This document shows, in pieces, positions 6,021-57,869 of a stretch of 64,000 bases of DNA. Position 1 is the first letter of the stretch. The number at the start of each line of letters is the position of its first letter. A program made the translations under genes and the position numbers. The notes beneath the pieces were generated by a model. It worked only from the letters and a program-made list of their open reading frames with translations. It was not told the origin of the DNA and made no database searches. Source of the stretch: an archaeon. GTDB taxonomy: Archaea > Thermoplasmatota > Thermoplasmata > JAJSAE01. The stretch is taken from assembly GCA_024281315.1 (NCBI GenBank), contig JAJSAE010000075.1, forward strand, positions 4,222 to 68,221, in the 5' to 3' direction.

Positions 6021-9000
6021 GTGATAATTATGGCAAAGATGCCCAAGATAAGAGCAGATAAAGAATCAAAAACGGTGGAAAAAGGACACAGGCCCCCGTT
6101 CGCCGGCCCGGTCTCTCAATGGCTGGCCGATAACTGGGGAACCCTGCTCCTGATGTTGACAATAGTCGGAATCGCCTTCTTCCTGAGGACATATTTCGGC
6201 TTCGGTCCCGCAACCCAGAACGGCTTTCTCGTATCTGGCGGGTCTGATTCCTACTATCACAAGAGAATCATAGACTATGCTCTCTCCACCGGGCATCAAC
6301 TCTTTCAGGACCCTCTTATCAATTATCCGTTGAGCACGAGGAACCCGAGGCCTCCTCTCTTTGTCTGGAGTAGTGTCATACTGGGCTATATATTCTCCCC
6401 TCTTGTAGGGAGTGTTGATGTTGCCACATGGTATGCATTCCTCTTTAACACGGCTTTCTGGGGCTCTCTGACCGTTATACCCGTCTATTTCATTACAAAG
6501 GAGTCTTTTGGCAAAAAGGCCGGGTTCATCGCCGCATTCCTGCTGGCTATAATGCCAGGCCATATTGAAAGAAGCGTATTCAGTAATGCTGACCACGACG
6601 CCATGGTGCAGTTCTTTGTGGTTCTATCGTTCTTCTTCCTTTTAAAGGCTCTCAAGACCATAAACGGTTCCAGATGGGTAAAGGACTGGAAGAAAAAGGA
6701 TAATGTAATTGACGGCTTGAAGTCCTACTTCGCTGCCAACCGCACCTCTCTTCTTTATTCCATGATGGCTGCCCTCTCCCTCTCCGCAATTGCGATGATA
6801 TGGAAGGGTTTCTCCTATGTTGTGGTTATCATCCTTGTCTACTATCTGGTGGACCTCATCATAAGCCGGTTTAAGAACAGGGATACGCTGGGAAGCACCA
6901 TGGTACTCGCAGTTTCTCTGAGCATGTTCTTCCTGCTGATATTCCCCATATACCTTAATGCCCACATTGTAAAGACATGGTATGATGTTCCGCTTCTCAT
7001 GTTCCTCGGCCTTCTGTTCATAGGGGTGATATTCACGGTGACGCGCGATTACCCTTGGACACTGGTATTCGGAATTTTCCTTATTGTGATGTCTCTCGGA
7101 TATCTCATATTTATGGTTCTACTCCCCTCCATAGGTGAGGCGATTCTTAGCGGGCAGGGCTATCTGGTTCAGAGCAAGCTGTATACCACGATTTCCGAGG
7201 CTCAGGCTCCAGGATTCAGCCACTTGGCAATGTCATTCGGCATGGTCAGTTTCTATCTGGCATTTATCGGTATTGCATGGGCTGCAATAAAGATTCCCAA
7301 GAAGGCCAGTGCGGACTTTATTTTCGTTGTTGTATGGGTGGCTGTGGCAATCTACATGGCCACTTCCGCCGGTCGTTTCGTATTCAATGCGTCTCCCGCC
7401 TTTGCTATAGCCTCCGGCTGGATACTTGCGATGGTTATAGAAGCGCTACACCTGCCCGAGATAAAGAGAAACAGTCGGGGATTTGACTGGAAACACCCGT
7501 GGCCTACCATAAAAAAGGCCATAAAGGTCCGTCATGTTATGGGAGTTATTTTCGTAGCTTTCATGATAATCCTCCCTAATGTCTGGTTTGCAGTGGATGC
7601 AGGCATTCCGTATGAAGTGAAAAGGACATACGATAACCAGATAAATGCCACCCTTCCGTCGTTTATCGCTTCGCCTAACCGCCCTGCCAACAGCATGTGG
7701 TACCTCGGAGCATTCGGTTATTCTCTCCCTCTGAATTCCAACTATTGGCCGGCAGCATGGCGGTGGTTTTCGTCTCAGGATGCCAATATATATCCCGAAG
7801 CAGACCGACCAGCATTCGTAAGCTGGTGGGACTACGGTTTCGAGGCGGCTCAGGAAGGACATCACCCCACGGTGGCGGATAACTTCCAGAACGGATATCA
7901 ATGGGCGGGAAATGTTATAACCGCACAGAACGAAAGCGAGACCATTGCGCTGTTCGAGGGAAGGATAATTGAAACCGCTGTTTTATATGGTGAGAAGCCA
8001 GAGGGCCGTACGGTCATGCCTAACATGAATCCGATTACACTGGAGCAGATAAGCGCATTGATGGATAAGTACGGTATTGACACCCAGAGAGTGATTGATA
8101 TAATAAACAATCCGCAGAATTATGTGGATGTCGTGCTTGAGAACCCAGATGTATACGGCTATTATAACTACGATCTGTCTCCAATTAATGCCAAGTATGC
8201 CATGCTTAAGGTGGAGCTCTCCAAAATTGGGGAGCAGAAAGAGGTGTGGATGTACAACGAGCTTCGCGAACTCACTGGCGACAGCATACAATACTTCGCC
8301 ATAGATTCCAGATTATTTCCATTTGATGCCAGATCCACCGGCATTTTCTATGCGCCCGTAAAACTCTCCGACAGAAGAATTGATAACGGGACAAGAAATC
8401 CCATTGATTTCTATGACATAAAGGCGGTGGATGAGTACGGCAAGGAACATGCACTCAACGAACAGCTGGATCCCAAACTCAAGATAACCTCGTACCAGAT
8501 ACATTACAAAGACATGTTCTACAACTCCATGCTCTATCGTTCCTACATCGGATACAGTGCACAAGATCTGGGGCAGGCGGATGACACCAGCATCCCCGGT
8601 CTTTCCGGCTCTCTTCAGCAACAGCGCCCCATGCAGGCCTGGAATATGAGCCATTTCAAACTGGTATATGTTACTGCGTACTACAATCCATATCCTTCGG
8701 ATCAGGTGAGGGACCATCCTGAGGCATGGACTGCTGTTTCTTACAATGATGCGGCCAAATATCAGCAGGAAATAAAGGCAGGCAACATGACAGGTGTGGT
8801 GGACATGACTCCTGGCTCCGGGTTGAAACAGGGGGTTGTCTTTGTAAAGTACTATGACGGAGCATTGATTAACGGCACAGTTAAGATGGATACCGGCACC
8901 CCCGTCCCCGGTGTACGCGTAACGGTACTGGATGAGTACGGGATTCCTCACGCCTCCACCATCTCCGATGATGCGGGGCGCTATTCTCTTGTCTCTGTTG

Positions 9001-12000
9001 CCGGGAACATAACCGTTGTTGCCTCCGTTGGCGACCCGAACCCTCTTACCAAGATTGGTGCGGATTTATATGCCACCAGAATTCATGTCTCCGAGGATCA
9101 GGCCATGAGGGTTCGTGAGGACCTGAACAACGACGGAGTGTTTGACTACAATATCAATCAGAATCTCGTGATAACCTCCGGAGGACTCAGTGGAACAGTA
9201 TTCTGGGACATGGACGGAGATAACTCGAGGAGCGCCCCCGATCAGACCATTGGCAGCGGACAATTGCTTCTTTCATACAGCAATGGAACCTTTGAAAAGA
9301 CCGTAAACATATCCGCAGACGGCCTGTTTGCCGCGGCCCACCTTATTCCGGGCAATTATCAGGCCAGCCTTCTGATGGATGGCATAACGATTCCTTCTTC
9401 GACAAAAATAGTGGTAAAAGAGGGAGAGACCGCCACGGTGAGTGTTGCCGTGCCAACGGGACATGTTGATGTTCTGGCAAGAAATACACAGGCTCAAAAC
9501 ATGAGCGTTTCCGTCTCTCTGAGGAATGTCACCACGGGAGATATAGTGGGACACATCACCACGGACATCAACGGCTCCGGCGTGATAGAGCCTCTGCTTC
9601 CGGGAAAATACGAACTCTCATCCTCAGATACCGAATATACATTTACACCTAGACTTGTTTCGGTGAGCAGTGGCCGGCATTCCGAGGTGAATGTAACTAT
9701 TTATGAAGGGGTTAATATTGCCGGTGTGGTGACTCTCAACTCGAGAGCGGTGGATGATGTAACTCTATTCTTTAACTGCAGGAACATGACCTACTCGGAC
9801 TCCGTAACCGTAAAGAACGGCATCTATTCGCTGTATTTGCCGCAGGGATATATCTTTGATATCTATTCTTTCTATGTTTCCGGCGACAGCCATTATGTCT
9901 ATGCGGGGAGTGTTTCCACCACCACTTCAATATCTATGGATATGGCACTTAAACCGGCATATCATATTTCCGGTGTGGCCCATCCGCCAACCAGCAGTAC
10001 GCAGGGCCTCAGGGGCGGAACAATCCATTTCTTCTCGGAGAACAGCGACATAAGGGCGGTAACCTATGTTGGCGGTGCCTACGATGTATGGCTCCCCGCA
10101 GGCTCGTATGATGTGTATCTCGGAGGGCCGCAGATATCTTTCACCGATAGAATTACTGTTTCCGGAGATATGGAATATAATCTCGACACGCACTACGGTT
10201 TCGAACTTTACGGATGGGTATGGCTTGATGCGGATAATAACGGAGAACTCGGCGGAAGTGAGATTCTGGATGGCGTCCCGCTCAGCATTATAAATTCGAG
10301 AGGGATTGCGGCACATGCAATCTCGAACAGAAGCAGTTATTCTGTTTACCTTGATCCTGGCGATTACACAATAAGAATTGATGACCCTCTCTATCAGAAC
10401 CTCTCGATCCCGTTTAAAATGCCTGCTATAAACATAACGAGAGACATAAAGGTGACTCTCAGAAATCTGACGGTATCGGGTCATGTTACAAGCGACGAGG
10501 GCCTCCCTCTCAGCGGCATAGATATATCATTACTGGCTCTGGATCAACACTCATCTTACCATGTCACTACAGACTCGGAAGGATATTACACCGTGGATGT
10601 AAGGCCTAACGATTACCGCCTACTGATTGATCAGAATGTTACTACCTGGATAAAGTATCTCTATGAAAATACTCTATCCGTGCCGGCCGGTTCTCACAAT
10701 CTGACAGAGGATATTACACTGAGTCAGCTGGTTTATGTGGGGGGAAATATCTCAAATCGCCCCTCCGAGAACTCAAGCACCGTTCTGCGGTTCATAGGTA
10801 AGGATAGCAGGAACATTACGGTGGAAGGGGGCGTATATGCCACATATCTGCACCCGGGCGATTACTCGGTGGAGGCGGTTTCCACCTTCAACGGCGTAAC
10901 ATACATGAATCTCTCGGTTATGACAGTCACTCTGTTCTCGTCCTCCCTCCATAATATCTCTCTTAAAACCACACATAAGCTGGAGGGCAGCATAGAATAT
11001 GGTGGACAGGTATTGAACAGAGATATAACACTGCATTTCACGACAAATAATGGCGCGTGGACGACTACCGTGACTCCGAACGGCCATTATTCCATTGCGC
11101 TTCCTGCCGGAAATTACAGTATATCCGGCGAACAGAGAGCGGTGGACATTGTGAACGGTGTGAAAAGATATGTGGTCTACAGTACCAGTGATTCGGTGAA
11201 CCTGACCTCGGATATGCTGCACACCATAAGCCTTTCCAGAGAGCTGGATAATTATACCTCCTTCGGTGTGATATCTGGCCTCAATGGCCTCGGTGTCCGG
11301 GCGAAATTGAGCTTTGTCGCTCTTAACGAAACAGCCATGGATCTCGAAGCGGAAAGCGGTTTCGACGGCTCTTATTCCGTCTCTCTTGCCCCAGGCCAAT
11401 ACTCTCTCTATGTGCTGAGGACGGAGGACAATTCTGCGGACGTAACGGTCTTCACGCAGACAACGCACGCAAATAACATGAACATCTCTTTGAAAAAAGG
11501 GCTTCAACTCAGAGGGTCCGTTTTAAGCGATACGGCCTCCCCGCTTCCCAATGCAGACATATCCGTTTCCGATTCCTCAGGGGTACTGGTGCGCGGTGCG
11601 GCCGATTCCGAGGCGAGCTATTTCATATACCTGCCGGCTGGCATCTACAATCTTTCCGCTCAGGGCTCCGTGGTTGAACATGGAAAGCAGATAAACTTTG
11701 CAGGAGAGAAGTATGTGGAACTTTTCGAGCCGCTCAGACAGGACATTGCCCTGAACAGAGATGTTGTGTACAGCTCCTCCATAAAATGGGACAGCAGGCA
11801 GGCTAGAACGGTTAAGGGCGGCGAAACGGTTAGCTATACATTTGTCGTGGAAAACACCGGCAATGTAAAGGATACATACGAGATATCCGCAAGCGTTCCG
11901 CAGGGCTGGTCTTATGAGGTAACAAAAAAGAATGTGACGCTTGATTTCGGCGAGATGAACAGCACAACAGTGGGCATTACCATTACGACCAGCAATAATT

Positions 12001-12602
12001 CTCTGGTGGAGCACAGCCCTGTTACGGTATATGCCATATCCAAGGTGAAGCCAAATACGCGCCCGGCCCAGATTCTGGACCTGAATATCGAACCGGAATA
12101 CGCCGTGGCCATTCTCGAGCAGGGCAGTGGGAACATAAGTGCCTCCTCGCTGAATTACAGGGTTCGTGTGGTGAATAACGGCAATATGAAGGACACATTT
12201 ACCCTAACCATATCAAATAAGAACGATTTAAGATCTCAGGGTTGGGATGCCGTTCTCATAGATCCTGTAACCCGTGCCGAAACCTCCGAAGCCATCGTTG
12301 ATGTGGATGCCCTCCAGGGTGCGGATATTACGATAATACTGAAGCCCATACAGACCTATCCGGCAGTTACCGCACCGGTCATACTCTATGCGGAGTCGGT
12401 GAACCACAATGTATCTTCGACCCATTCCCTCTCTCTTACTCTACCCGATCTGGCACCCTCCAGGAATTCCTTCAGTATAAGCGGGGAGGCGGTCAGTATG
12501 GTGGCCCCAGATTATTTGACCACTACTATGACACAAGTGGCCCTGCTTATAGTTCTAGCGGTGGCTGCCGTTTACCTTGCCAGAAAGAAGGGGGTGTTCT
12601 GA
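6021..12602 (+). CDS. aglB: AglB/STT3 archaeal oligosaccharyltransferase with a giant C-terminal beta-sandwich repeat extension and C-terminal TM anchor
   Basis: 2193-aa uninterrupted ORF. The N-terminal ~600 aa are multi-TM with the WWDYG motif (FVSWWDYGFE, about nt 7816). Downstream are tandem CarboxypepD_reg-like and CARDB/NEW3-like modules. The terminal hydrophobic helix (VALLIVLAVAAVYLARKKGVF) is followed by a TGA stop. Confidence 0.85.
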   Translation: MIIMAKMPKIRADKESKTVEKGHRPPFAGPVSQWLADNWGTLLLMLTIVGIAFFLRTYFGFGPATQNGFLVSGGSDSYYHKRIIDYALSTGHQLFQDPLINYPLSTRNPRPPLFVWSSVILGYIFSPLVGSVDVATWYAFLFNTAFWGSLTVIPVYFITKESFGKKAGFIAAFLLAIMPGHIERSVFSNADHDAMVQFFVVLSFFFLLKALKTINGSRWVKDWKKKDNVIDGLKSYFAANRTSLLYSMMAALSLSAIAMIWKGFSYVVVIILVYYLVDLIISRFKNRDTLGSTMVLAVSLSMFFLLIFPIYLNAHIVKTWYDVPLLMFLGLLFIGVIFTVTRDYPWTLVFGIFLIVMSLGYLIFMVLLPSIGEAILSGQGYLVQSKLYTTISEAQAPGFSHLAMSFGMVSFYLAFIGIAWAAIKIPKKASADFIFVVVWVAVAIYMATSAGRFVFNASPAFAIASGWILAMVIEALHLPEIKRNSRGFDWKHPWPTIKKAIKVRHVMGVIFVAFMIILPNVWFAVDAGIPYEVKRTYDNQINATLPSFIASPNRPANSMWYLGAFGYSLPLNSNYWPAAWRWFSSQDANIYPEADRPAFVSWWDYGFEAAQEGHHPTVADNFQNGYQWAGNVITAQNESETIALFEGRIIETAVLYGEKPEGRTVMPNMNPITLEQISALMDKYGIDTQRVIDIINNPQNYVDVVLENPDVYGYYNYDLSPINAKYAMLKVELSKIGEQKEVWMYNELRELTGDSIQYFAIDSRLFPFDARSTGIFYAPVKLSDRRIDNGTRNPIDFYDIKAVDEYGKEHALNEQLDPKLKITSYQIHYKDMFYNSMLYRSYIGYSAQDLGQADDTSIPGLSGSLQQQRPMQAWNMSHFKLVYVTAYYNPYPSDQVRDHPEAWTAVSYNDAAKYQQEIKAGNMTGVVDMTPGSGLKQGVVFVKYYDGALINGTVKMDTGTPVPGVRVTVLDEYGIPHASTISDDAGRYSLVSVAGNITVVASVGDPNPLTKIGADLYATRIHVSEDQAMRVREDLNNDGVFDYNINQNLVITSGGLSGTVFWDMDGDNSRSAPDQTIGSGQLLLSYSNGTFEKTVNISADGLFAAAHLIPGNYQASLLMDGITIPSSTKIVVKEGETATVSVAVPTGHVDVLARNTQAQNMSVSVSLRNVTTGDIVGHITTDINGSGVIEPLLPGKYELSSSDTEYTFTPRLVSVSSGRHSEVNVTIYEGVNIAGVVTLNSRAVDDVTLFFNCRNMTYSDSVTVKNGIYSLYLPQGYIFDIYSFYVSGDSHYVYAGSVSTTTSISMDMALKPAYHISGVAHPPTSSTQGLRGGTIHFFSENSDIRAVTYVGGAYDVWLPAGSYDVYLGGPQISFTDRITVSGDMEYNLDTHYGFELYGWVWLDADNNGELGGSEILDGVPLSIINSRGIAAHAISNRSSYSVYLDPGDYTIRIDDPLYQNLSIPFKMPAINITRDIKVTLRNLTVSGHVTSDEGLPLSGIDISLLALDQHSSYHVTTDSEGYYTVDVRPNDYRLLIDQNVTTWIKYLYENTLSVPAGSHNLTEDITLSQLVYVGGNISNRPSENSSTVLRFIGKDSRNITVEGGVYATYLHPGDYSVEAVSTFNGVTYMNLSVMTVTLFSSSLHNISLKTTHKLEGSIEYGGQVLNRDITLHFTTNNGAWTTTVTPNGHYSIALPAGNYSISGEQRAVDIVNGVKRYVVYSTSDSVNLTSDMLHTISLSRELDNYTSFGVISGLNGLGVRAKLSFVALNETAMDLEAESGFDGSYSVSLAPGQYSLYVLRTEDNSADVTVFTQTTHANNMNISLKKGLQLRGSVLSDTASPLPNADISVSDSSGVLVRGAADSEASYFIYLPAGIYNLSAQGSVVEHGKQINFAGEKYVELFEPLRQDIALNRDVVYSSSIKWDSRQARTVKGGETVSYTFVVENTGNVKDTYEISASVPQGWSYEVTKKNVTLDFGEMNSTTVGITITTSNNSLVEHSPVTVYAISKVKPNTRPAQILDLNIEPEYAVAILEQGSGNISASSLNYRVRVVNNGNMKDTFTLTISNKNDLRSQGWDAVLIDPVTRAETSEAIVDVDALQGADITIILKPIQTYPAVTAPVILYAESVNHNVSSTHSLSLTLPDLAPSRNSFSISGEAVSMVAPDYLTTTMTQVALLIVLAVAAVYLARKKGVF
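8890..12470 (+). repeat. protein-level tandem beta-sandwich repeats (CarboxypepD_reg-like and two CARDB/NEW3-like modules) within AglB, rich in N-x-S/T sequons
   Basis: Recurrent signatures such as GxV.D..G.PL.GA.V, VTTDSEGYYTVDVRPNDYRL, VVENTGNVKDTYEISASVPQGWSYEV and VVNNGNMKDTFTLTISN. I counted about 30 N-x-S/T sequons in the last ~1100 aa. Confidence 0.55.
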
Positions 12603-51317: not shown

Positions 51318-51929
51318 TTATTCCTCCTTAATTTCAACATTAACATCCATCTTCTCGAAGACCTCTTCCACATTGGAGAGGATTTCCTCTCTGTGCTCCT
51401 CGCTGCTGATGTGCAATAGAAGGTTTAAGTTTCTGCCGGAAATCTCTATCTTTTTCACCGTACCCGAGTTTATCAGATCTTTGTCGGTGCTTGGGTCAAG
51501 AATCCCTCTGAGCAGTGTTTTTACGAAATCCTCTGTCAAATCCTTCTTGCCATTCATATAATCCCACTTGTTAAGTGCTATCTTTAGGGCCTGTACCGCC
51601 AGAACCGCACAGTGATACTTTATCTTCGGGAGACCGCCGAGTGCGGTTATCTCGTCCCGGAATGTCAATTCACGGGCGTATTCCAGCGTTTTCCCTCTGA
51701 TCATCTCGGTTATCATGGAACTCGTGGCGATGTTGGCCACGCAGCCGTAGGATTCGAATGTAACCCTCTCGATTGTTTCGTTCTCTCTGTCTATTTTCAG
51801 ATACAGTTTCAGCATGTCTCCACAGGCCACGCTCCCGGCAATTGCGGTAATGTCGGCATCCTCCATGACCCCTGCGTTCTTGGGCTGCATAAACAGTTCC
51901 TTAACCTTTAAAGAGTATCCCGTCTTCAT
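51318..51929 (-). CDS. iscU: IscU/NifU-type Fe-S cluster scaffold with C-terminal extra domain
   Basis: 203 aa. GSVACGDMLKL...ESYGCVANIATSS...YHCAVLAVQALK, the three-Cys scaffold pattern. Confidence 0.8.
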   Translation of the reverse strand: MKTGYSLKVKELFMQPKNAGVMEDADITAIAGSVACGDMLKLYLKIDRENETIERVTFESYGCVANIATSSMITEMIRGKTLEYARELTFRDEITALGGLPKIKYHCAVLAVQALKIALNKWDYMNGKKDLTEDFVKTLLRGILDPSTDKDLINSGTVKKIEISGRNLNLLLHISSEEHREEILSNVEEVFEKMDVNVEIKEE

Positions 51930-51930
51930 T

Positions 51931-53100
51931 CTATTTCCTCCTGTTTCTGTAAAGAGGGCTGATTTGCCTCAGTTTTTCTATTACGAATCTCATTGTCTCC
52001 GCTGCCCGGTCCATTTCCTCCGCGGTGTTGTATATAGACAGCCCGAACCGTGTGGACGAATTGGCCTGCTCCGCACCCTTGCCAATGGCCGATATTACAT
52101 AGCTGTACTTCAACGCGGGGTTGAAGCAGGCTGATCCGGTTCTAACGATAAGGCCCTTCTCACTCGCCAGCATGAGGACCGCTTCCCCTTCCACGCCTCT
52201 GAATGATATGTTCACATTATCCACTACGCGATATTTATGGGGGCCGTTGAGCTCGGAGTCCGGTATTTCCAGCAGGGCGTTCGTGAGGCGGTCCCTCATT
52301 AGTCTGACTCTCTCCACATCCTCTTTCCTTGCTTCCTTTACCGCTTCTGCCAGACCTGCGATTGCGGGCATGTTGGGATTTCCGCCCCTCTTGCCGAATT
52401 CTCTCAAATCTCCGTGAAGGAGCGGTTCAAGTTTCATGCCTTCTCTTACGAAAAGGGCTCCGCTTCCGAGCGGTGCGTGAATCAGATGGCCGGATATGGT
52501 CAGCAAGTCCACATTGAGCCTGCTAACATCTATCTTTTCCCTCAGGAAGGAATGACTGGCGTCCGTGTGAAATATGACTCCTTCGTCATCTGCAATATCT
52601 CCGACGGCCTTAATGTCCTGAACGGTTCCAATCTCCTGATTTGCGTGTTGAACCGACAGAAATGATGCGCCTTTGATGTTCTCCTTCAGTTCTTCAATGT
52701 TGATAAACCCCTCGGAATCCACACCGATACGCACGGCCTCATGCCCCCTGCTCTCAAGATATTTGAACGAGGCTAGAATACACTTCCTCTCAATGGCGGA
52801 TGTTACTATTTTCTGTTTGCCAGAGTGCTTTTCCATATATCCTACAGTGCCCTTAACCGCAAAATTATTTCCCTCGGTAACTCCCGATGTGAAGATTATT
52901 TCCTCGGGTTTTGCACCGATTTTTCCGGCGATTGTCTCTCTGGCTTTCCATATGGCATCTCCCGCTTCTTCCTCGAAAAGATGGCCGAACTCTCCGCCGG
53001 GGACGCCGTAACTAATCAGATAACGCTCTTTCATGGCCTCGAACACCCGGTCCGAGACCCTTGTCACATTCCCGTTATCGAGATAGATTACTTCCGCCAT
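51931..53100 (-). CDS. iscS: IscS/NifS-family cysteine desulfurase homologue lacking the PLP-binding lysine
   Basis: 389 aa. TSGVTEGNNFA, HTDASHS and RTGSACFNPALKYSY (catalytic Cys loop) are present. Where the conserved SGHK sits, the sequence reads ISGHLIHAPLGSGALF (Lys to Leu). Confidence 0.8.
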   Translation of the reverse strand: MAEVIYLDNGNVTRVSDRVFEAMKERYLISYGVPGGEFGHLFEEEAGDAIWKARETIAGKIGAKPEEIIFTSGVTEGNNFAVKGTVGYMEKHSGKQKIVTSAIERKCILASFKYLESRGHEAVRIGVDSEGFINIEELKENIKGASFLSVQHANQEIGTVQDIKAVGDIADDEGVIFHTDASHSFLREKIDVSRLNVDLLTISGHLIHAPLGSGALFVREGMKLEPLLHGDLREFGKRGGNPNMPAIAGLAEAVKEARKEDVERVRLMRDRLTNALLEIPDSELNGPHKYRVVDNVNISFRGVEGEAVLMLASEKGLIVRTGSACFNPALKYSYVISAIGKGAEQANSSTRFGLSIYNTAEEMDRAAETMRFVIEKLRQISPLYRNRRK

Positions 53101-53207: not shown

Positions 53208-55100
53208 ATGGGTTCCGTATACCTCGGCAAAATACACCTTCGGTGGTGTCATTCGTGCAATCTACCTATACTGGAGGAGAAGGAGTGCCCGGTATGCGGT
53301 GCGCCCACGATGCCGGTGGAAATCACGCCGCCGGGGGATGCAAGGCCCGCCTTTTCCGGGGATATAGAACTCATAAGGCGGATTGTGAACTCTCAGTTTG
53401 GAGAGGGAACAGGGAGGTCCCTCCTCCCGGATGATGCCCTTGTGATTATGAACCGCGCACCGGACCTTGACCGGATGGACGAGGTGATTGCGGACGGAGA
53501 GGTGCTGGGAAGCCTGAGGTACGATATTGTTCGGGGCTTTGAGTTCCTGCCCCGGGCAGCGGGAGCACTCAGACTCTCCAAAACGGCTTCAAAAGGCATT
53601 GTCAATATGGACGAAGGGGCATATGGGCCGGTGATAAAAGGGGCCAGCGCCCTTGCCGTCGGGGTGCTTTCGGCAGATCCAGAGATAAAGAGCGGCCAGC
53701 AGGTCCTCTTGAAATGCTGCGGGAGGATATTTGCAGGCGGAAGAGCGAAGATGGACGCTTCCGAAATGCTGGAAGGCGGTGCGAGGGGGAGTGCGGTAAA
53801 GGTCAGATGGACTATTCCGGAGGATATGCGGCGAGAGGTGCGGAAGCAGCCCGGATGGGGTGATGTCGTCACGGCCAACAAAGTGGTTATCGACAGAAGG
53901 GTGAAAGAGGCGATTTCTTTCGTAAAGGAGCAGACAGAGAAGTGCAGGGGAACTGTGGCTGTTTCCTACAGTGGGGGAAAGGACAGTCTGGCCACGCTAT
54001 CCCTTGTGTTGGAAGCCGGCATAAAGCCGGAGATGTTCTTCATAAATACCGGAATAGAACTGCCGGAAACCGTGGAGAATGCGGAACTTGTCTCGCGTCA
54101 CTTTTCGCTCCTCTTGAAGATCGCCGATGCGGGGAACGCCTTCTGGCGCGCACTGGAGTACTTCGGTCCACCCGGAAAGGACCACCGCTGGTGCTGCAAG
54201 ACATGCAAACTCGGCCCCACGGTTCAGGCCATAAAAAGCGACTTTGACGGTGAGCTCCTCTCGTTCATCGGCCAGAGAGGGTACGAATCCAAGCAGAGAA
54301 AGAACAAAGGGGAGACATGGGAGAACCCCTGGACCCCCGGACAGCACGGCGCATCCCCGATACAGCACTGGACAGCGCTCCATGTCTGGCTTTACATATT
54401 CGACAGAAAACTCCCTTACAACATCTGGTACGAGAGGGGAATGGAAAGGGTGGGGTGCTTCTTATGCCCCACGATGGACCTCGGAGAAGCGGAGATTTTG
54501 AGAGAGGAATACCCGGAATACAGGAAATGGGAGGATTACCTTAAGGATTACTTTGAGAAGAGGGGGCTTGGCGATGAATGGGTAAGATACGGACTGTGGC
54601 GGTGGAAACGCCCGCCCGAATCAATACTGAAACGGCTTGAGGAGGAGGGGATATCCATCTCCCTGCCCGCCGGGAAAAGAAAGGGGAATGTACGGAAACT
54701 CGCACCGACAAGGGATAAAAGCGGGACGCTTCTGGCCTTCGGCGGCCCCTTTGATATGGAAACCGTGGCCCCGTTCCTGAACATACTCTCTCCCACTTCC
54801 AGGGGGGGCGATGGCTCCGTTCTGCTGGAAAAGAGTGCGGCCTGCCTCACCCTGCATCCGGACGGGAGCATAACAGTGAAAGACCCGGAGAAGCCGTACA
54901 AAAAGGACCTGCGCCTGCTGGAAGAGTTGATATACCGCGCCTCGGAGTGTGTGGGATGCGGAATCTGTCCCGGAAGGTGTCCCACCGGGGCCCTTGACAT
55001 GGCAGGCGGCAGAATAACGATAGATGTTGAGAAGTGCGCACACTGCTCCCTCTGTCTGGAAGGGCCGTGCCCGGTGGTGGACTTCGGGCATCGTCTGTAA
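53208..55100 (+). CDS. PAPS-reductase/PP-loop superfamily protein with N-terminal Zn-ribbon region and C-terminal 2x[4Fe-4S] ferredoxin-type domain
   Basis: 630 aa. CHSCN...CPVCG ribbon, PP-loop VAVSYSGGKDSLATL, CxxC pair HRWCCKTCKLGP, C-terminal CVGCGICPGRCP...CAHCSLCLEGPCP. Confidence 0.55.
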   Translation: MGSVYLGKIHLRWCHSCNLPILEEKECPVCGAPTMPVEITPPGDARPAFSGDIELIRRIVNSQFGEGTGRSLLPDDALVIMNRAPDLDRMDEVIADGEVLGSLRYDIVRGFEFLPRAAGALRLSKTASKGIVNMDEGAYGPVIKGASALAVGVLSADPEIKSGQQVLLKCCGRIFAGGRAKMDASEMLEGGARGSAVKVRWTIPEDMRREVRKQPGWGDVVTANKVVIDRRVKEAISFVKEQTEKCRGTVAVSYSGGKDSLATLSLVLEAGIKPEMFFINTGIELPETVENAELVSRHFSLLLKIADAGNAFWRALEYFGPPGKDHRWCCKTCKLGPTVQAIKSDFDGELLSFIGQRGYESKQRKNKGETWENPWTPGQHGASPIQHWTALHVWLYIFDRKLPYNIWYERGMERVGCFLCPTMDLGEAEILREEYPEYRKWEDYLKDYFEKRGLGDEWVRYGLWRWKRPPESILKRLEEEGISISLPAGKRKGNVRKLAPTRDKSGTLLAFGGPFDMETVAPFLNILSPTSRGGDGSVLLEKSAACLTLHPDGSITVKDPEKPYKKDLRLLEELIYRASECVGCGICPGRCPTGALDMAGGRITIDVEKCAHCSLCLEGPCPVVDFGHRL

Positions 55101-55159
55101 CGGAACATAGTGATATTGAGGCAGGCAAATTCATAAATAACACACCGCAATCCCTCATC

Positions 55160-55963
55160 ATGCACGGAAAGAGCGGCCTTGTCTTTATTGGTCTCGGAAT
55201 AAACGACGAAATGGACATTACGGTAAAGGGGCTGGATGCGGCCAGAGAGTGCGGCTGCCTCTTTTCCGAGTTCTACACTGCGGCCCTCATGGGAAGCACC
55301 CCGGAAAGGCTGGAGGAAATGATCGGCAGACCGGTGATTTCTCTCACCCGGGAGGATGTGGAAAGCGGAGACCTGATACTGGAAAAGGCGAAGAATGAGA
55401 GGGTCGGCCTTCTTACTGCGGGAGACCCCATGGCAGCCACCACCCATGCAGACCTAAGGTTAAGGGCGGAAAATGAGGGGATTCCCACGGAGGTCATAAA
55501 CGGCATATCCATCCTTGTGGCTGCGCCGTCTGCCCTCGGCCTTCAGCACTATAAATTCGGAAGAACCACCACCATACCGTTCGTTGAGCAGGGATACTTT
55601 CCCACCAGTCCCTATGAGGCGTTAATAAAAAACTTCGAGGCGGGGCTTCACACCCTTGTCCTTCTGGACATTCACTCCGATGAGGGGCGGTATCTAACGG
55701 CAGACGAGGCCATGAAGACACTTCTTCTTATGGAGAAGAAGGCGGGCGGGAACTTCTTTGAGGAACATCCCCTTATATGCGGCCTCGGTCGTATCGGCTC
55801 GGATGCGGCCGTAATAAGGTGCGGAGACATTCATTCTCTTAAAGAGAAGGACTTCGGCCCTCCGCTACACTGCATCGTCATTCCCGGGCCGCTTCATTAC
55901 ATGGAAAAAGAGGCGCTGAAAATCCTCGGGAATACACCCGAAAAACTGCTGGATGATTATTAG
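55160..55963 (+). CDS. dph5: diphthine synthase
   Basis: Start MHGKSGLVFIGLG. LLTAGDPMAATTHADL and the tetrapyrrole-methylase fold pattern typical of Dph5. The ORF-track ORF is N-terminally extended. Confidence 0.8.
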   Translation: MHGKSGLVFIGLGINDEMDITVKGLDAARECGCLFSEFYTAALMGSTPERLEEMIGRPVISLTREDVESGDLILEKAKNERVGLLTAGDPMAATTHADLRLRAENEGIPTEVINGISILVAAPSALGLQHYKFGRTTTIPFVEQGYFPTSPYEALIKNFEAGLHTLVLLDIHSDEGRYLTADEAMKTLLLMEKKAGGNFFEEHPLICGLGRIGSDAAVIRCGDIHSLKEKDFGPPLHCIVIPGPLHYMEKEALKILGNTPEKLLDDY

Positions 55964-55997: not shown

Positions 55998-56891
55998 TCA
56001 CTTCATCAGAATCAGCGATAGCTTGGCCTTTCCGTTCTCCAGTTTATTGTCTCGGATGCTTCCCACAAGTAATCTCTTAATCGGTGTTTTTTCCTCGATT
56101 TCTCTGGCAATGTCTTTCAGGTCCATTATGTCGGGTCTGGCCGAGTGAAGTATTGCTATTCCCGTGTCCGGTCGCATCTTCAGGGCATCGCGTATCCAAG
56201 GCCCCCTCAGTGCCTCCGCAACCGCTCTCCTCTCCTTCTCCCGTCCCGAGCCGGCTCCCATTCCGAAGAACCCGGCCTTCCTCCTCACCTCGCCGAAGAA
56301 TATGTCAAGGTCCTCTCTTGTCATTATGGCGGATAGGTCGTCTATGGGAAGCCAGATTATGGAGTTCATCAGGCTGAATGACTTCATTATAGGCATGTCC
56401 CTTGCAATCTCGGATAGGTGGTCGTTTCTGTAGATAAGTGTGAGACTGGCACCGCTCATTATGGCATCGAGAGTCTTTCGGGCGCTCTTCACCCTCTCGC
56501 CCGACTCCACGGAGAACGGAATGCTTACCGAGAAAATGGAGGGGATAACCTGTCTTCTGGTGAGTTCGAGAACATAGGGAGATATGACCGATGTTGTGCG
56601 CCCACCGAGGCCGGCAAAACCCACAAAGACATCCCCGTAGAGTTCTGGTATCAACTGCCGTTCCATCTCTGCCAGCCCACTGCTCTTAATCCCCAGAGAC
56701 GAGTACTCCATTGCCGGAAACAGACTTCTATCCACATGAAAACGCCTTGAAAATCCCTGAAAGTCTCCTGCACCCGCACTAAGGGCCAGAGCATTCTCTT
56801 TCCCTCTCACCATATTGCATCCGGCACTGCCGATCCCTCCGAAGACATAGGAGATTTTCTCCTCTCCGGTTCCGAGTTGAATGACATCCAC
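55998..56891 (-). CDS. divergent short FtsZ/tubulin-superfamily protein (FtsZ-like)
   Basis: 297 aa. G1-like VFGGIGSAGCNMV, T4-region DVFVGFAGLGGRTTSV (canonical GGGTGTG degenerate), FtsZ-like IFSVSIPFSVESGERVKSARKTLD...LIYRND, T7-like PIDDLSAIM. No C-terminal tail. Confidence 0.55.
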   Translation of the reverse strand: MDVIQLGTGEEKISYVFGGIGSAGCNMVRGKENALALSAGAGDFQGFSRRFHVDRSLFPAMEYSSLGIKSSGLAEMERQLIPELYGDVFVGFAGLGGRTTSVISPYVLELTRRQVIPSIFSVSIPFSVESGERVKSARKTLDAIMSGASLTLIYRNDHLSEIARDMPIMKSFSLMNSIIWLPIDDLSAIMTREDLDIFFGEVRRKAGFFGMGAGSGREKERRAVAEALRGPWIRDALKMRPDTGIAILHSARPDIMDLKDIAREIEEKTPIKRLLVGSIRDNKLENGKAKLSLILMK

Positions 56892-56921: not shown

Positions 56922-57869
56922 TTACTGGTTGCCTATGTTGTTCAGGTCTATATCAAGGGCGGCGCACATCTCCTTGTATCTGTTGCGTATGGTAACCTCG
57001 GTGATGCCGGTAGCTTCGGAGACCTCCTTCTGAGTCTTGGGATTGCTGGTGAGTATGCATGAAATATATATTGCGGCGGCAGCAAGGCCAGTCGGACCTT
57101 TTCCGGAGGTGACACCCAGTTTCCCTGCATCCTCCAGAATCTCCATCCCCTTTATCTGTACGGACGGGGGGACGCCGAGTTTGTTGCAGAATCTTGACAG
57201 ATACTCATCCGGCGTGGACGGCTTGAGATTCAGGCTCACCCCTCTGGCCAGGTGTCGGTATGCTCTGCCCAGTTTCTTCTTGTTTATGTCTGCGGCTTCT
57301 GAGACTTCCGCAATTGTTCTGGGTACTCCACACTGCCTGCACGATGCGTAAACCGATGCGGCAACCAGATGCTCTATGCTTCTCCCCCTTGCCAGGTTCT
57401 TCTCCAGCGCTTTTCTGTATATCATGGCCGCAGTCTCCCGGATATTCCTTGGGAGACCGAGTTTCGATGAAATCCTGCTCAGTTCCTGAAGAGCAACGGA
57501 AAGGTTTCTCTCCTCCGCATCGCCTATGTTCATCCTCTTGTGCCACTTCCTTACGCGATAGACGGTAGCCCTGTTCCTGTTGGGAATTCTCTTACCGTAG
57601 GCATCCCTGTTGGCCCATGAAATCTCGGTAGAAAGTCCTTTGTCATGTATGAGTACGGTAGTGGGCGCGCCGGTTCTGGCCCTCCTTTCGCTCTGGTCGC
57701 TGTCGAAGGCCCTCCATTCAGGCCCCTGATCAATGTATGTATCGTCAAGAACAAGACCGCACTCCTCGCAGACAAGTTCTCCCCTGTCGTAGTACATCTT
57801 CAGGTTCCTGCTCCCGCATTCCGGGCATTTCAGGTCCTCTTTTTCCTGAGAAATCCTTTTTCGGGTCAC
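56922..57869 (-). CDS. tfb: transcription initiation factor TFB (TFIIB)
   Basis: 315 aa. N-terminal Zn-ribbon CPECGSRNL...CEECG and two cyclin-like repeats. Confidence 0.92.
   Translation of the reverse strand: MTRKRISQEKEDLKCPECGSRNLKMYYDRGELVCEECGLVLDDTYIDQGPEWRAFDSDQSERRARTGAPTTVLIHDKGLSTEISWANRDAYGKRIPNRNRATVYRVRKWHKRMNIGDAEERNLSVALQELSRISSKLGLPRNIRETAAMIYRKALEKNLARGRSIEHLVAASVYASCRQCGVPRTIAEVSEAADINKKKLGRAYRHLARGVSLNLKPSTPDEYLSRFCNKLGVPPSVQIKGMEILEDAGKLGVTSGKGPTGLAAAAIYISCILTSNPKTQKEVSEATGITEVTIRNRYKEMCAALDIDLNNIGNQ

Follow-up and report, generated by a model that had tools for sequence, protein, structure and literature searches.

A short FtsZ paralogue with a degenerate GTPase site in Thermoplasmata archaea

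The short family and its described relatives

FtsZ is the textbook polymerisation-activated GTPase, and archaeal FtsZ binds SepF via its C-terminal tail. Elsewhere in the superfamily, a lysine in the T7 loop of beta-tubulin replaces the catalytic glutamate, so that the GTP in alpha-tubulin stays unhydrolysed. Archaeal FtsZ1 is represented among solved structures by MjFtsZ1 (PDB 1FSZ and 1W5A) and OdinFtsZ1 (PDB 9V7V; PMC12583498). Archaeal FtsZ2, linked to RHH/cdrS genes, coexists with FtsZ1 as an extra paralogue, and Methanomassiliicoccaceae carry 3-6 FtsZ-family proteins together with SepF (Pende et al.). The FtsZl1 proteins, the Tubulin_2 family of Makarova & Koonin 2010, are defined by the Pfam Tubulin_2 domain and by operons containing vWA genes; they have no recognisable T6-H7 region or FtsZ-type C-terminal domain and carry coiled-coil or other C-terminal extensions (PMC2875224, PMC9871819). 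In the Thermoplasmata the FtsZ machinery is already known as eroding or rewired, some members lacking SepF and PRC-barrel proteins or any FtsZ, and some having minimal ESCRT systems (PMC11188069).

The window, by which we mean the whole stretch of 64,000 nt that was analysed, encodes a short, divergent protein that an earlier note on this DNA had placed in the FtsZ family (Table 1), and profile and structure searches agree with that placement. A phmmer search of PDB matches it to M. jannaschii FtsZ at E = 4e-12 over residues 88-288, and the Pfam FtsZ_C family matches weakly, at 13.4 bits against a cut-off of 27; of the 43 family members scanned, 25 match it. A profile built from the family scores MjFtsZ1 at E = 1e-72 (248 bits), OdinFtsZ1 at 217 bits, and bacterial FtsZ at 172-209 bits. 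CetZ scores only 42-46 bits and is rejected as an identity; it retains an active GTPase signature, and the short family is nearer FtsZ in both sequence and structure. TubZ, PhuZ, and tubulin score below 35, and the 22-34 bits of TubZ and PhuZ, along with a chromosomal housekeeping-gene context, lead us to reject those identities too. The structure prediction that the earlier note had suggested gives an AF2 model with a pLDDT of 93.4 from a 50-sequence alignment that included canonical FtsZ (a 14-sequence alignment gave an unusable pLDDT of 42). [quoted passage not shown] The short family belongs inside FtsZ proper, and is nearer FtsZ than any other superfamily branch.

Table 1. Coordinates of the short ftsZ gene, its neighbours, and its encoded motifs in the window
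Feature	Position	Strand	Remarks
Short FtsZ paralogue gene	55998..56891	-	297 aa; GTG start at 56891, stop codon 55998-56000
dph5 (diphthine synthase)	55160..55963	+	Pfam TP_methylase; convergent neighbour of the short ftsZ gene; start approximate, ATG at 55160 inside ORF 55034-55963
tfb (transcription factor B)	56922..57869	-	Pfam TFIIB and Zn ribbon; upstream, same strand
TATA-like element TTTTTAA	56914..56920	-	Centred about 26 nt upstream of the GTG, within the 30-nt tfb spacer
T1/G1 box GIGSAGCN	56814..56837	-	Residues 19-26; retained; 103-sequence alignment
T2/T3 loop region	56685..56786	-	Residues ~36-69; NTD and GAGxxPxxG absent; alignment
Degenerate T4 signature GLGGRTTS	56589..56612	-	Residues 94-101; instead of GLGGGTGTG; alignment
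T5 PFSVE, H5 Arg133, T6 N156-D-H-L	56415..56519	-	T5 at residues 125-129; retained; alignment
Truncated T7 loop MTREDLDIF	56298..56324	-	Residues 190-198; 5-residue deletion; D194 (first Asp) kept
FtsZ-type C-terminal domain	56001..56279	-	Residues 205-297; ends at strand S10; AF2 model

Within FtsZ, the family stands as a group of its own. Its members are proteins of about 300 aa with intact ORFs of constant length; an exhaustive profile search returned 46 representatives at E < 1e-30, and the family loci all come from Thermoplasmata/Methanomassiliicoccales MAGs. The complete genomes CP058896.1 (1.82 Mb) and OY970070.1 (1.98 Mb) are among the carriers. Scored with the family HMM, its members reach 285-389 bits and canonical FtsZs 136-217; with a canonical HMM, the canonical FtsZs reach 179-491 and the family members 66-170. 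Each sequence does best on the HMM of its own group, with zero cross-overs. A neighbor-joining tree makes the family monophyletic, on a long branch outside an unresolved canonical backbone and with long-branch effects likely. HMM and BLAST scores lean to FtsZ1, and the Thermoplasmata FtsZ1a/b proteins are the best BLAST match for all 8 family members tested; a Thermoplasmata protein labelled FtsZ2 by its context (locus L083) scores 202 bits on the family HMM. On TIGR00065, the window protein reaches 50.1 bits against a cut-off of 295.2 and is thus below the curated equivalog threshold for canonical FtsZ. The view that it is neither canonical FtsZ1 nor canonical FtsZ2 is upheld. We found no published description of the clade. 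JGI labels some of the family proteins "cell division protein FtsZ" or "cell division GTPase FtsZ".

The gene has a dN/dS of about 0.08; it is under purifying selection and functional, and a pseudogene reading is rejected.

Motifs retained and motifs lost

Motif conservation was counted on 103 family sequences against 29 canonical FtsZ sequences, and positions prefixed Mj follow MjFtsZ1 numbering. The G1-like box that had been read from the letters is present as GGIGSAGCN at residues 18-26, and G19, G21, A23, G24, and N26 of this T1 loop are 97-100% conserved across the 103 family sequences, as in canonical FtsZ. The PF..E block is likewise where it had been seen, with the P, F, and E of T5 conserved in 99-100% of the family, as is the ND.L of T6 (residues 156-159; N156 in 98%). 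Helix H7 keeps its Phe, but its guanine-specific Asp is lost family-wide. The near-invariant retained positions of the family all line the nucleotide pocket or T7.

The main claim of the earlier note concerned the glycine box of T4, which does have the degenerate form given in Table 1; where the canonical tubulin signature is GGGTG[T/S]G, the window protein reads GGRTTSV. The third glycine of T4 (Mj G134) is present in 100% of canonical FtsZ and 0% of the family, which has E, R, L, Y, or V there, Glu in most members and Arg98 in the window protein, and the last (Mj G138) also drops from 100% to 0%. The window clade has a T4 of GLGGRT[TA]S that recurs in independent orthologues of 73-90% identity, and a related degenerate form, GLGG-x-TG[ST], is found in about 100 family members. 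The same box in independent orthologues excludes sequencing error as the cause, and its conservation among them shows the degeneracy to be genuine. The extent of degeneration had, however, been understated, as T2, T3, H7, and T7 are affected as well. In the T2/T3 region, Mj N70, T71, D72, G96, G98, P101, and G104, all at 93-100% in canonical FtsZ, are lost in the family, and the window protein reads LSAGAGDF and PAMEYSSLGIK. In canonical FtsZ these loops contact the gamma phosphate and Mg. The T7-like stretch is present in shortened form: Mj 230-234 are missing in 103/103 family sequences, including N233, which is in 100% of canonical sequences; Mj D238 goes from 100% to 0%; and D235 is kept in 87% of the family. 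Of the canonical T7 synergy motif NxDxx[D/E], then, the Asn is deleted and the second Asp replaced.

The strands and helices of the C-terminal domain in the AF2 model run from E205-215 to E288-296. The end of the protein, ...KLSLILMK, is the last core beta-strand, aligned with MjFtsZ1 331-337, and since the protein stops there, the linker and tail are absent, as had been proposed. Thermoplasmata FtsZ1 copies run about 35-40 residues further, to a ...VDF[IV]R tail. The short family is also without the N-terminal extension of about 35-45 aa found in archaeal FtsZ1. As to membrane targeting, a tail is absent, and neither end of the protein has an amphipathic helix that is evident in sequence or model.

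Set beside archaeal FtsZ1, the short family shares the two-domain fold and the conserved T1, T5, T6, and H7 Phe, but it lacks the N-terminal extension, linker, and tail, is degenerate in T2, T3, T4, and T7, and has only 16-18% identity in structural alignments. FtsZ2 is like the short family in being an extra paralogue that coexists with FtsZ1, but FtsZ2 itself keeps GGGTGTG, NTD, GAGGNP, NLDFAD, and the tail, none of which the short family does.

Genomic context and coexistence with canonical FtsZ

The gene converges with dph5, as the earlier note had it, and Pfam confirms both dph5 and tfb. The gaps are 34 nt to dph5 and 30 nt to tfb. The gene had also been described as sitting alone between these two, which is strictly not so, with tfb on the same strand just upstream; the sense in which the description holds is that the TATA-like element about 26 nt before the start codon makes a promoter of its own probable, and the gene is probably expressed as a single gene from this putative promoter. 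The spacing of this element is one for leaderless transcripts and recurs in 40 of 45 family loci, in which an A/T-rich hexamer starts at -38 to -23, peaking sharply between -34 and -29. The GTG start is supported by an N-terminus, M-D-[VIL]-I-x-[LI]-G, common to the orthologues.

Across the family, dph5 is found convergent and downstream, adjacent or a few kb off, in 26 of 45 loci, an arrangement that persists down to about 30% identity between the FtsZ-like proteins. The adjacency to tfb is confined to the window and one other locus (L001), where the upstream genes are polD-L and tfb. The conserved neighbours are dph5, trm5, and dcd, and divergently mre11-rad50-herA-nurA. No operon with ftsZ, sepF, or other division genes was seen among the family loci, nor the secE-nusG-rpl11 context of FtsZ1 or the upstream RHH gene of FtsZ2; neither a cdrS-like RHH gene nor any other conserved small ORF was found upstream of the family genes, a 127-aa RHH-like gene preceding the family gene only in CP058896.1. 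Conversely, canonical ftsZ loci of Bathyarchaeia, Woesearchaeota, and others gave no matches to the dph5/trm5/mre11/rad50 synteny.

Canonical ftsZ genes occur in the same lineage. In the MAG UBA10834, the short gene is on DUGQ01000027.1 (L023) and a tandem canonical ftsZ pair is on DUGQ01000007.1 (L086), the one case on which coexistence in a single genome rests, with binning error possible; the canonical FtsZ contigs P0311, P0281, P0284, and P0350 are none of them in an assembly that also supplies a family locus. Related MAGs have the tandem arrangement ftsZ-ftsZ-secE-nusG-rpl11, and RHH-ftsZ2 in L083, with canonical contexts seen in L082-L090. In the canonical copies, T1-T4 and T7 are intact, and the tails end in ...VDF[IV]R. 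Since FtsZ2 coexists with the FtsZ1 pair in the lineage, by the evidence of one locus, the short family is not simply the FtsZ2 orthologue. Together, the short family, the tandem FtsZ1 pair, and FtsZ2 suggest a Z-ring system of up to 4 paralogues in Methanomassiliicoccales-type archaea.

Proposed role and competing explanations

The short protein is probably an accessory or regulatory partner of division and not the division motor. More specifically, we give an even chance to its being an FtsZ paralogue, non-hydrolysing and without a tail, whose role is to modulate polymers of canonical FtsZ. What is kept of the pocket (T1, T4 in part, T5, the Asn of T6, and the Phe of H7) would serve the ribose, the base, and the alpha and beta phosphates, while the parts expected to sense or attack the gamma phosphate (the T2 NTD, the T3 GAGxxPxxG, two T4 glycines, and the T7 Asn and second Asp) are all lost. 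Having lost the tail, the protein would be an untethered subunit, which may bind canonical FtsZ through conserved longitudinal faces and so co-assemble with it or cap protofilament ends. A subunit with a dead T7 could not trigger hydrolysis in the subunit it contacts, and filament turnover or length would be altered as a result. The protein would thus be a pseudo-GTPase regulator of the Z-ring instead of a force-generating polymer. We infer for the protein that it still binds nucleotide, has lost GTPase activity, interacts with canonical FtsZ, and affects division. Because T7 is 5 residues shorter and T3 is rebuilt, both longitudinal faces differ from the canonical ones, and co-assembly might fail. 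That T1, T4, T5, and T6 are so well conserved could as readily mean that the protein alone still binds a nucleotide and perhaps hydrolyses it slowly. Set against the modulator reading is the observation that the conserved neighbours, dph5, trm5, dcd, and mre11-rad50-herA-nurA, do not point to division.

In a stricter version, which seems to us unlikely, the short protein would be catalytically dead and an obligate partner to one of the canonical FtsZ copies, with which it would make up a defined heterodimer or a filament cap. The likeness here is to beta-tubulin, as an analogy and not as subfamily-level homology: in both cases, a superfamily member disabled in T7 would be joined to a relative that is active. 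The pocket of beta-tubulin itself is complete, however, whereas the short family is degenerate in both the gamma-phosphate sensors and T7, and where beta-tubulin forms a heterodimer, one for the short family is only putative. Were this obligate pairing true, it would be an FtsZ-lineage parallel to alpha/beta-tubulin, with a disabled T7 locking the nucleotide of the partner. Archaea with little or no wall could in that way set Z-ring dynamics without that subunit being tethered by SepF.

Of the readings that take the protein out of the Z-ring, one that we hold doubtful is an autonomous cytoskeletal protein, which would bind nucleotide and self-assemble into stable filaments of low or no turnover, serving cell shape or internal organisation, in archaea that are wall-less or weakly walled, independently of the Z-ring, a CetZ-like role reached from an FtsZ ancestor. 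Near-invariance of the base, ribose, and alpha/beta-phosphate residues and of one T7 Asp is what a persisting longitudinal contact mediated by nucleotide would predict, every characterised superfamily member polymerises (PMC2875224), and a single gene with its own promoter-like element and without division-gene neighbours fits as well. Such filaments would have no evident membrane-targeting element, though, and the loops of their longitudinal interface, T3 and T7, are rebuilt or truncated; the residue at the third T4 glycine also varies freely, which speaks against a tightly constrained phosphate site. Recruitment to a process involving DNA, for example repair or the segregation of chromosomes, is improbable. 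The case for it is that 26 of 45 family loci have rad50 and mre11 upstream and on the other strand, in subgroups only 25-30% identical, with the short ftsZ gene and mre11-rad50 directly divergent and sharing an intergenic region in three of them (L017, L026, and L028), that polD-L and tfb are upstream in the window and L001, and that TubZ and PhuZ of the same superfamily segregate DNA. But the orientation is divergent, often with an antiporter or oxidoreductase gene inserted between, the mre11-rad50 adjacency is lost in the window clade, and the equal conservation of dph5, trm5, and dcd suggests plain synteny rather than a functional link. There is also no DNA-binding domain in the protein and no TubR-type adaptor gene.

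The two remaining explanations concern what the protein is. That it might be the organism's usual FtsZ for division, be it an FtsZ1 or FtsZ2 orthologue that evolves fast or an artefact of sequencing or assembly, draws on archaeal FtsZ1 being closest among solved structures, and on some Thermoplasmata reportedly encoding FtsZ without SepF or PRC-barrel proteins (PMC11188069). We consider it very improbable: about 100 independent sequences share the degenerate motifs, which hence are not errors, FtsZ1 pairs and RHH-linked FtsZ2 are present in the same lineage and once in the same MAG, the gene is outside the contexts of both, and the TIGR00065 score is far under its cut-off. The earlier note had leaned instead to an FtsZL1-type protein acting in membrane remodelling, and to this we give hardly any credence. 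The resemblance is general: both are euryarchaeal, divergent, and FtsZ-like, and both can be found alongside canonical FtsZ, FtsZl1 in some archaea, but the defining features of FtsZl1 are all absent. Tubulin_2 (PF13809) has no match to the window protein at E ≤ 10 and matches 1 of 43 family members at a non-significant E = 0.056; the T6 Asn, H7 Phe, and FtsZ-type C-terminal domain are present; the protein carries neither a coiled coil nor an extension; the 45 family neighbourhoods are free of vWA, kinase, GTPase, and OmpA genes; and the profile is about 200 bits nearer FtsZ than any other superfamily branch. The proposed affinity does not stand, and with it goes the proposed membrane role.

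Returning to the preferred reading of a non-hydrolysing modulator, the short family would be a natural pseudo-GTPase within FtsZ proper. If it caps or co-assembles, FtsZ itself would have supplied the material for a genetically encoded regulator of filament turnover, and the family would be a natural experiment that separates nucleotide binding, hydrolysis, and assembly. The family also matters for how FtsZ is counted, since surveys based on PF00091, such as Santana-Molina 2023, could include it as FtsZ: all 43 members scanned match Pfam Tubulin at E ≤ 1, and the window protein, at 31.5 bits, is just below the gathering score of 33.

Assignment of the short protein to FtsZ

The GTG start of the short ftsZ-like gene is supported by its orthologues at 73-90% identity, which open with the same M-D-[VIL]-I-x-[LI]-G. 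The protein scores 31.5 bits against Pfam Tubulin (gathering score 33), 13 bits against FtsZ_C and 50 bits against TIGR00065 ftsZ (cut-off 295), and its top PDB sequence match is M. jannaschii FtsZ (E = 4 × 10−12), so that sequence matching indicates a homology to FtsZ that is significant and far under the family thresholds. The FtsZ-type motifs listed in an earlier note are all found, as GIGSAGCN (T1), PFSVE (T5), NDHL (T6) and a shortened T7 stretch; its degenerate glycine box is there as well, with T4 reading GLGGRTTS where canonical FtsZ has GLGGGTGTG, and the chain does end with the final strand of the globular core, with no linker or tail.

A profile of the short family scored on PDB sequences gives 248 bits to MjFtsZ1, 217 to OdinFtsZ1 (9V7V, known as such from PMC12583498) and 172-209 to bacterial FtsZ, against 42-46 for CetZ, 25-34 for TubZ and RepX, 22 for PhuZ and 18 for Tubulin-like. 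The AlphaFold model of the window protein, built on a 50-sequence alignment, is confident (pLDDT 93.4, pTM 0.91). Profile and model together place the short protein within FtsZ proper; a CetZ, TubZ or tubulin identity is ruled out by family-profile scores of 18-46 bits versus 172-248 for FtsZ. FtsZl1, to which the earlier note had likened it, is defined by Pfam Tubulin_2, coiled-coil or other extensions and vWA operons, and is without recognisable T6-H7 or an FtsZ-type C-domain (PMC2875224, PMC9871819). That affinity fails: there is no significant Tubulin_2 match (1 of 43 family members, E = 0.056), Pfam Tubulin is matched by all 43 members scanned (E ≤ 1) and FtsZ_C by 25, and the family gene neighbourhoods hold no vWA, kinase, GTPase or OmpA genes. 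We regard the FtsZl1 reading as scarcely conceivable.

A word-indexed search of 5.8 billion proteins returns only 18 relatives: a compact set of 297 aa, a second set of 303 aa with about 26% identity, and a single 300-aa outlier at 29%. Scanning species-representative genomes yields about 45 family loci, each coding a protein of the short type of about 300-310 aa and all in Thermoplasmata, Methanomassiliicoccales or 'Methanobacteriota' MAGs, the weaker matches being canonical FtsZ from Bathyarchaeia, DPANN and CPR bacteria. Among 1.84 billion representatives searched exhaustively by HMM, 46 proteins reach E < 10−30, mostly about 300 aa with some shorter and apparently partial, and canonical-length proteins (about 380-450 aa) start at roughly 110 bits and below. 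With local HMMs, family members score 285-389 bits on the family model and 66-170 on the canonical one, versus 136-217 and 179-491 for canonical FtsZ, without overlap in preferred model. The window clade is the most divergent: the canonical HMM gives just 66 bits to L001, the orthologue of the window gene. NJ analysis recovers the family as monophyletic on a long branch, and the canonical backbone is without resolution. On the family HMM, FtsZ1b scores 246-250 bits, FtsZ1a 221-232 and a single FtsZ2 sequence 202, and in BLAST FtsZ1a/b is the top match for 8 of 8 members tested, with FtsZ2 close in 3; by these scores the origin of the family leans towards FtsZ1.

No description of this clade was found in the searchable literature. 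Santana-Molina et al. (PMC9871819) mention divergent crenarchaeal FtsZs and no Thermoplasmatota-specific group, and Makarova et al. (PMC11188069) go no further than noting that FtsZ occurs in some Thermoplasmata that lack SepF or PRC-barrel proteins. In databases the named members appear as 'cell division protein FtsZ', 'cell division GTPase FtsZ' or 'hypothetical protein'.

Two other FtsZ-like forms were seen. The even shorter protein of L074 and L076 (264-289 aa) has T4 as GMGG[KR]TGT, the 5-residue T7 gap of the short family and no FtsZ C-terminal domain; as it scores about equally on the family and canonical HMMs (about 125-136 bits), it may be a separate truncated paralogue. In L080 a family domain (348 bits, family HMM) ends a 752-codon open frame, which is either a true N-terminal fusion or just a long stop-free stretch 5' of the real start.

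The nucleotide site

Degeneration of the nucleotide site extends much further than the glycine box.

Nucleotide-contact elements in 103 family and 29 canonical sequences aligned to MjFtsZ1 (MjFtsZ1 numbering)
Element	Canonical	Short family
T1 G44, G46, G49, N51		retained, 97-100%
T5 P161, F162, E165		retained, 99-100%
T6 Asn192		retained, 98%
H7 Phe208		retained, 92%
H5 Arg (window R133)		retained, nearly invariant, at least 90%
T2 N70/T71/D72	93-96%	Asn absent, Asp 44%
T3 G-A-G-x-x-P-x-x-G	conserved	gone, with one-residue deletion
T4 third Gly (G134)	100%	0% (E 47%, R, L, Y)
T4 last Gly (G138)	100%	0%
H7 Asp212 (guanine-specific)	89%	N/D/G/S
T7 Asn233	100%	lost with 5-residue deletion, every member
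T7 Asp235	96%	kept, 87%
T7 Asp238	100%	0%

In FtsZ, T2 and T3 make contacts to the gamma-phosphate and Mg, and hydrolysis is activated by the T7 Asn and Asp residues from the next subunit. The motifs GGGTG[T/S]G and NxDxx[D/E] are restated in the Odin FtsZ paper (PMC12583498). From the sequence pattern of kept and lost elements we predict a protein that may still bind a nucleotide through base, ribose and alpha/beta phosphates, with neither sensing nor hydrolysis of the gamma-phosphate and no means of activating hydrolysis in a partner subunit. Residues vary freely at the third position of T4, which speaks against any remaining constraint on that part of the pocket.

Genomic context and expression

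The short gene is live, not decayed. The window gene and its L001 orthologue encode proteins with 73% amino acid identity and zero indels; pN is 0.144, pS 0.70 and dN/dS about 0.08, an approximate value since dS is near saturation; pN of the adjoining tfb is 0.011. TTTTTAA lies in the 30-nt spacer 3' of tfb, centred about 26 nt 5' of the GTG. In the 45 family loci, A/T-rich hexamers cluster tightly at −34 to −29 relative to the start codon, usually with GAAA or ACAA just before them; 40 loci have one between −38 and −23, against 18 and 23 in two control windows. The spacing fits a putative archaeal BRE/TATA promoter with a leaderless mRNA, and this geometry suggests that the short gene is normally its own transcription unit.

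Pfam bears out the neighbours named earlier, convergent dph5 and tfb, and places the PolD large subunit and tfb on the strand of the short gene; the window contains no second FtsZ homologue. In 26 of 45 loci a convergent dph5 is found downstream, adjacent to the family gene or a few kb off, even where the family proteins share about 30% identity; a Trm5/TYW2-type methyltransferase and then dcd typically come after it. On the upstream side, rad50 and mre11 stand on the opposite strand in 26 loci, joined in some by herA and nurA and often separated from the family gene by a Na+/H+ antiporter or oxidoreductase gene; in the window and L001, polD-L and tfb occupy that side instead. The divergent mre11-rad50 pair is seen across L003-L041, L049 and L081, in subgroups only 25-30% identical, a long-range synteny unusually persistent for non-operon genes. 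The 10 kb on either side of each family locus contain no division gene (ftsZ or sepF), a conserved small RHH gene is not seen upstream of the family gene, and the synteny was not found at canonical ftsZ loci in other archaea. In L081 a 127-aa gene with an RHH/antitoxin-like look at its N-terminus (MTDVTIRGIDDEVYSKFAAEAKK...) lies 61 nt 5' of the short gene on the same strand; tblastn finds no homologue of it in the remaining family loci.

Coordinates of the features discussed
Feature	Locus	Position (strand)	Remark
Short ftsZ-like gene	window	55998-56891 (-)	297 aa, GTG start
Cysteine desulfurase and NifU-like scaffold gene	window	51318-53100	
TGT_C2/PUA protein	window	53208-55100 (+)	630 aa
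Very long ORF	window	6021-12602 (+)	2193 aa
Divergent mre11-rad50	L081	999-9093	
127-aa gene	L081	9556-9939 (+)	complete Methanomassiliicoccales genome CP058896.1
Even shorter FtsZ-like gene	L074	9914-10708	Methanomassiliicoccales MAG
Even shorter FtsZ-like gene	L076	1569-2438	Methanomassiliicoccales MAG
Frame ending in family domain	L080	5441-7696	uncultured Methanomassiliicoccales
Tandem canonical ftsZ	L082	4777-7110	
Tandem canonical ftsZ	L083	4677-7101	
Tandem canonical ftsZ	L086	3053-5405	DUGQ01000007.1
Tandem canonical ftsZ	L087	4752-7107	
Tandem canonical ftsZ	L088	3001-5462	
Tandem canonical ftsZ	L089	3001-5491	
Tandem canonical ftsZ	L090	1572-4065	
Third canonical ftsZ	L083	1110-2487 (-)	Methanomassiliicoccales, 346 aa
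FtsZ-like gene array	L070	3773-8638	QMVU01000034.1, Thermoproteota MAG

Canonical FtsZ in the same lineages and a proposed role

Searching with P0154, a canonical Thermoplasmatota FtsZ, brings up numerous FtsZ sequences about 350-400 aa long, of which several come from sources named as Thermoplasmata or Methanomassiliicoccales MAGs. In MAGs of these groups, tandem ftsZ-ftsZ pairs (about 354-397 aa per copy) lie directly 5' of secE-nusG-rpl11-rpl1-rpl10, the FtsZ1 context. In the pairs examined (L082, L083, L086-L088 and L090), the GTPase motifs of both copies are intact and each copy ends in a ...VDF[IV]R tail; canonical copies keep GGGTGTG, NTD and GLGAGxxPxxG, with T7 as GLVNLDFND or SLINLDFAD. 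The pair looks like a lineage-specific FtsZ1 duplication, and the copies could form heteropolymers. L086 belongs to assembly UBA10834, as does DUGQ01000027.1 (L023), which carries a short family gene: a direct observation of both kinds in one genome, a MAG. A cdrS-ftsZ2 arrangement is known in Halobacteria. In L083 the third canonical ftsZ lies about 2.2 kb upstream of the tandem pair (about 3.5 kb start to start) with a 103-aa RHH gene before it, matching the FtsZ2/cdrS arrangement described in PMC9871819. According to Pende et al., Methanomassiliicoccaceae have SepF and 3-6 FtsZ-family proteins, and Methanomethylophilaceae have none. In L070 there are four full FtsZ-like genes in tandem (178-230 bits, canonical HMM) and an incomplete fifth cut by the contig end.

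We put at roughly an even chance that the short protein is a pseudo-GTPase accessory subunit of canonical FtsZ. It would be soluble and untethered, since it lacks a tail and any evident amphipathic helix, and would neither hydrolyse GTP nor trigger hydrolysis; through the still-conserved pocket face and the T7 Asp it would co-assemble with canonical filaments or cap their ends, and so tune filament turnover. That it instead forms an autonomous low-turnover filament is possible and rather unlikely. A DNA-linked role, suggested by the mre11-rad50 and PolD neighbourhoods, is a slim prospect; we read the neighbourhood as conserved synteny and not as a functional operon, and retain a link through the divergent mre11-rad50 pair as a less favoured hypothesis. 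An ordinary division FtsZ is very improbable. An accessory subunit of this kind might even embody the tubulin-like principle of an active/inactive heterodimer, arisen within FtsZ, which is doubtful and, if true, of high interest.

Elsewhere in the window, the TGT_C2/PUA protein also has PAPS-reductase (ATP-pyrophosphatase-type) and C-terminal 4Fe-4S dicluster domains, and the cysteine desulfurase and NifU-like scaffold gene that it adjoins suggest a tRNA thiolation or sulfur-transfer module.
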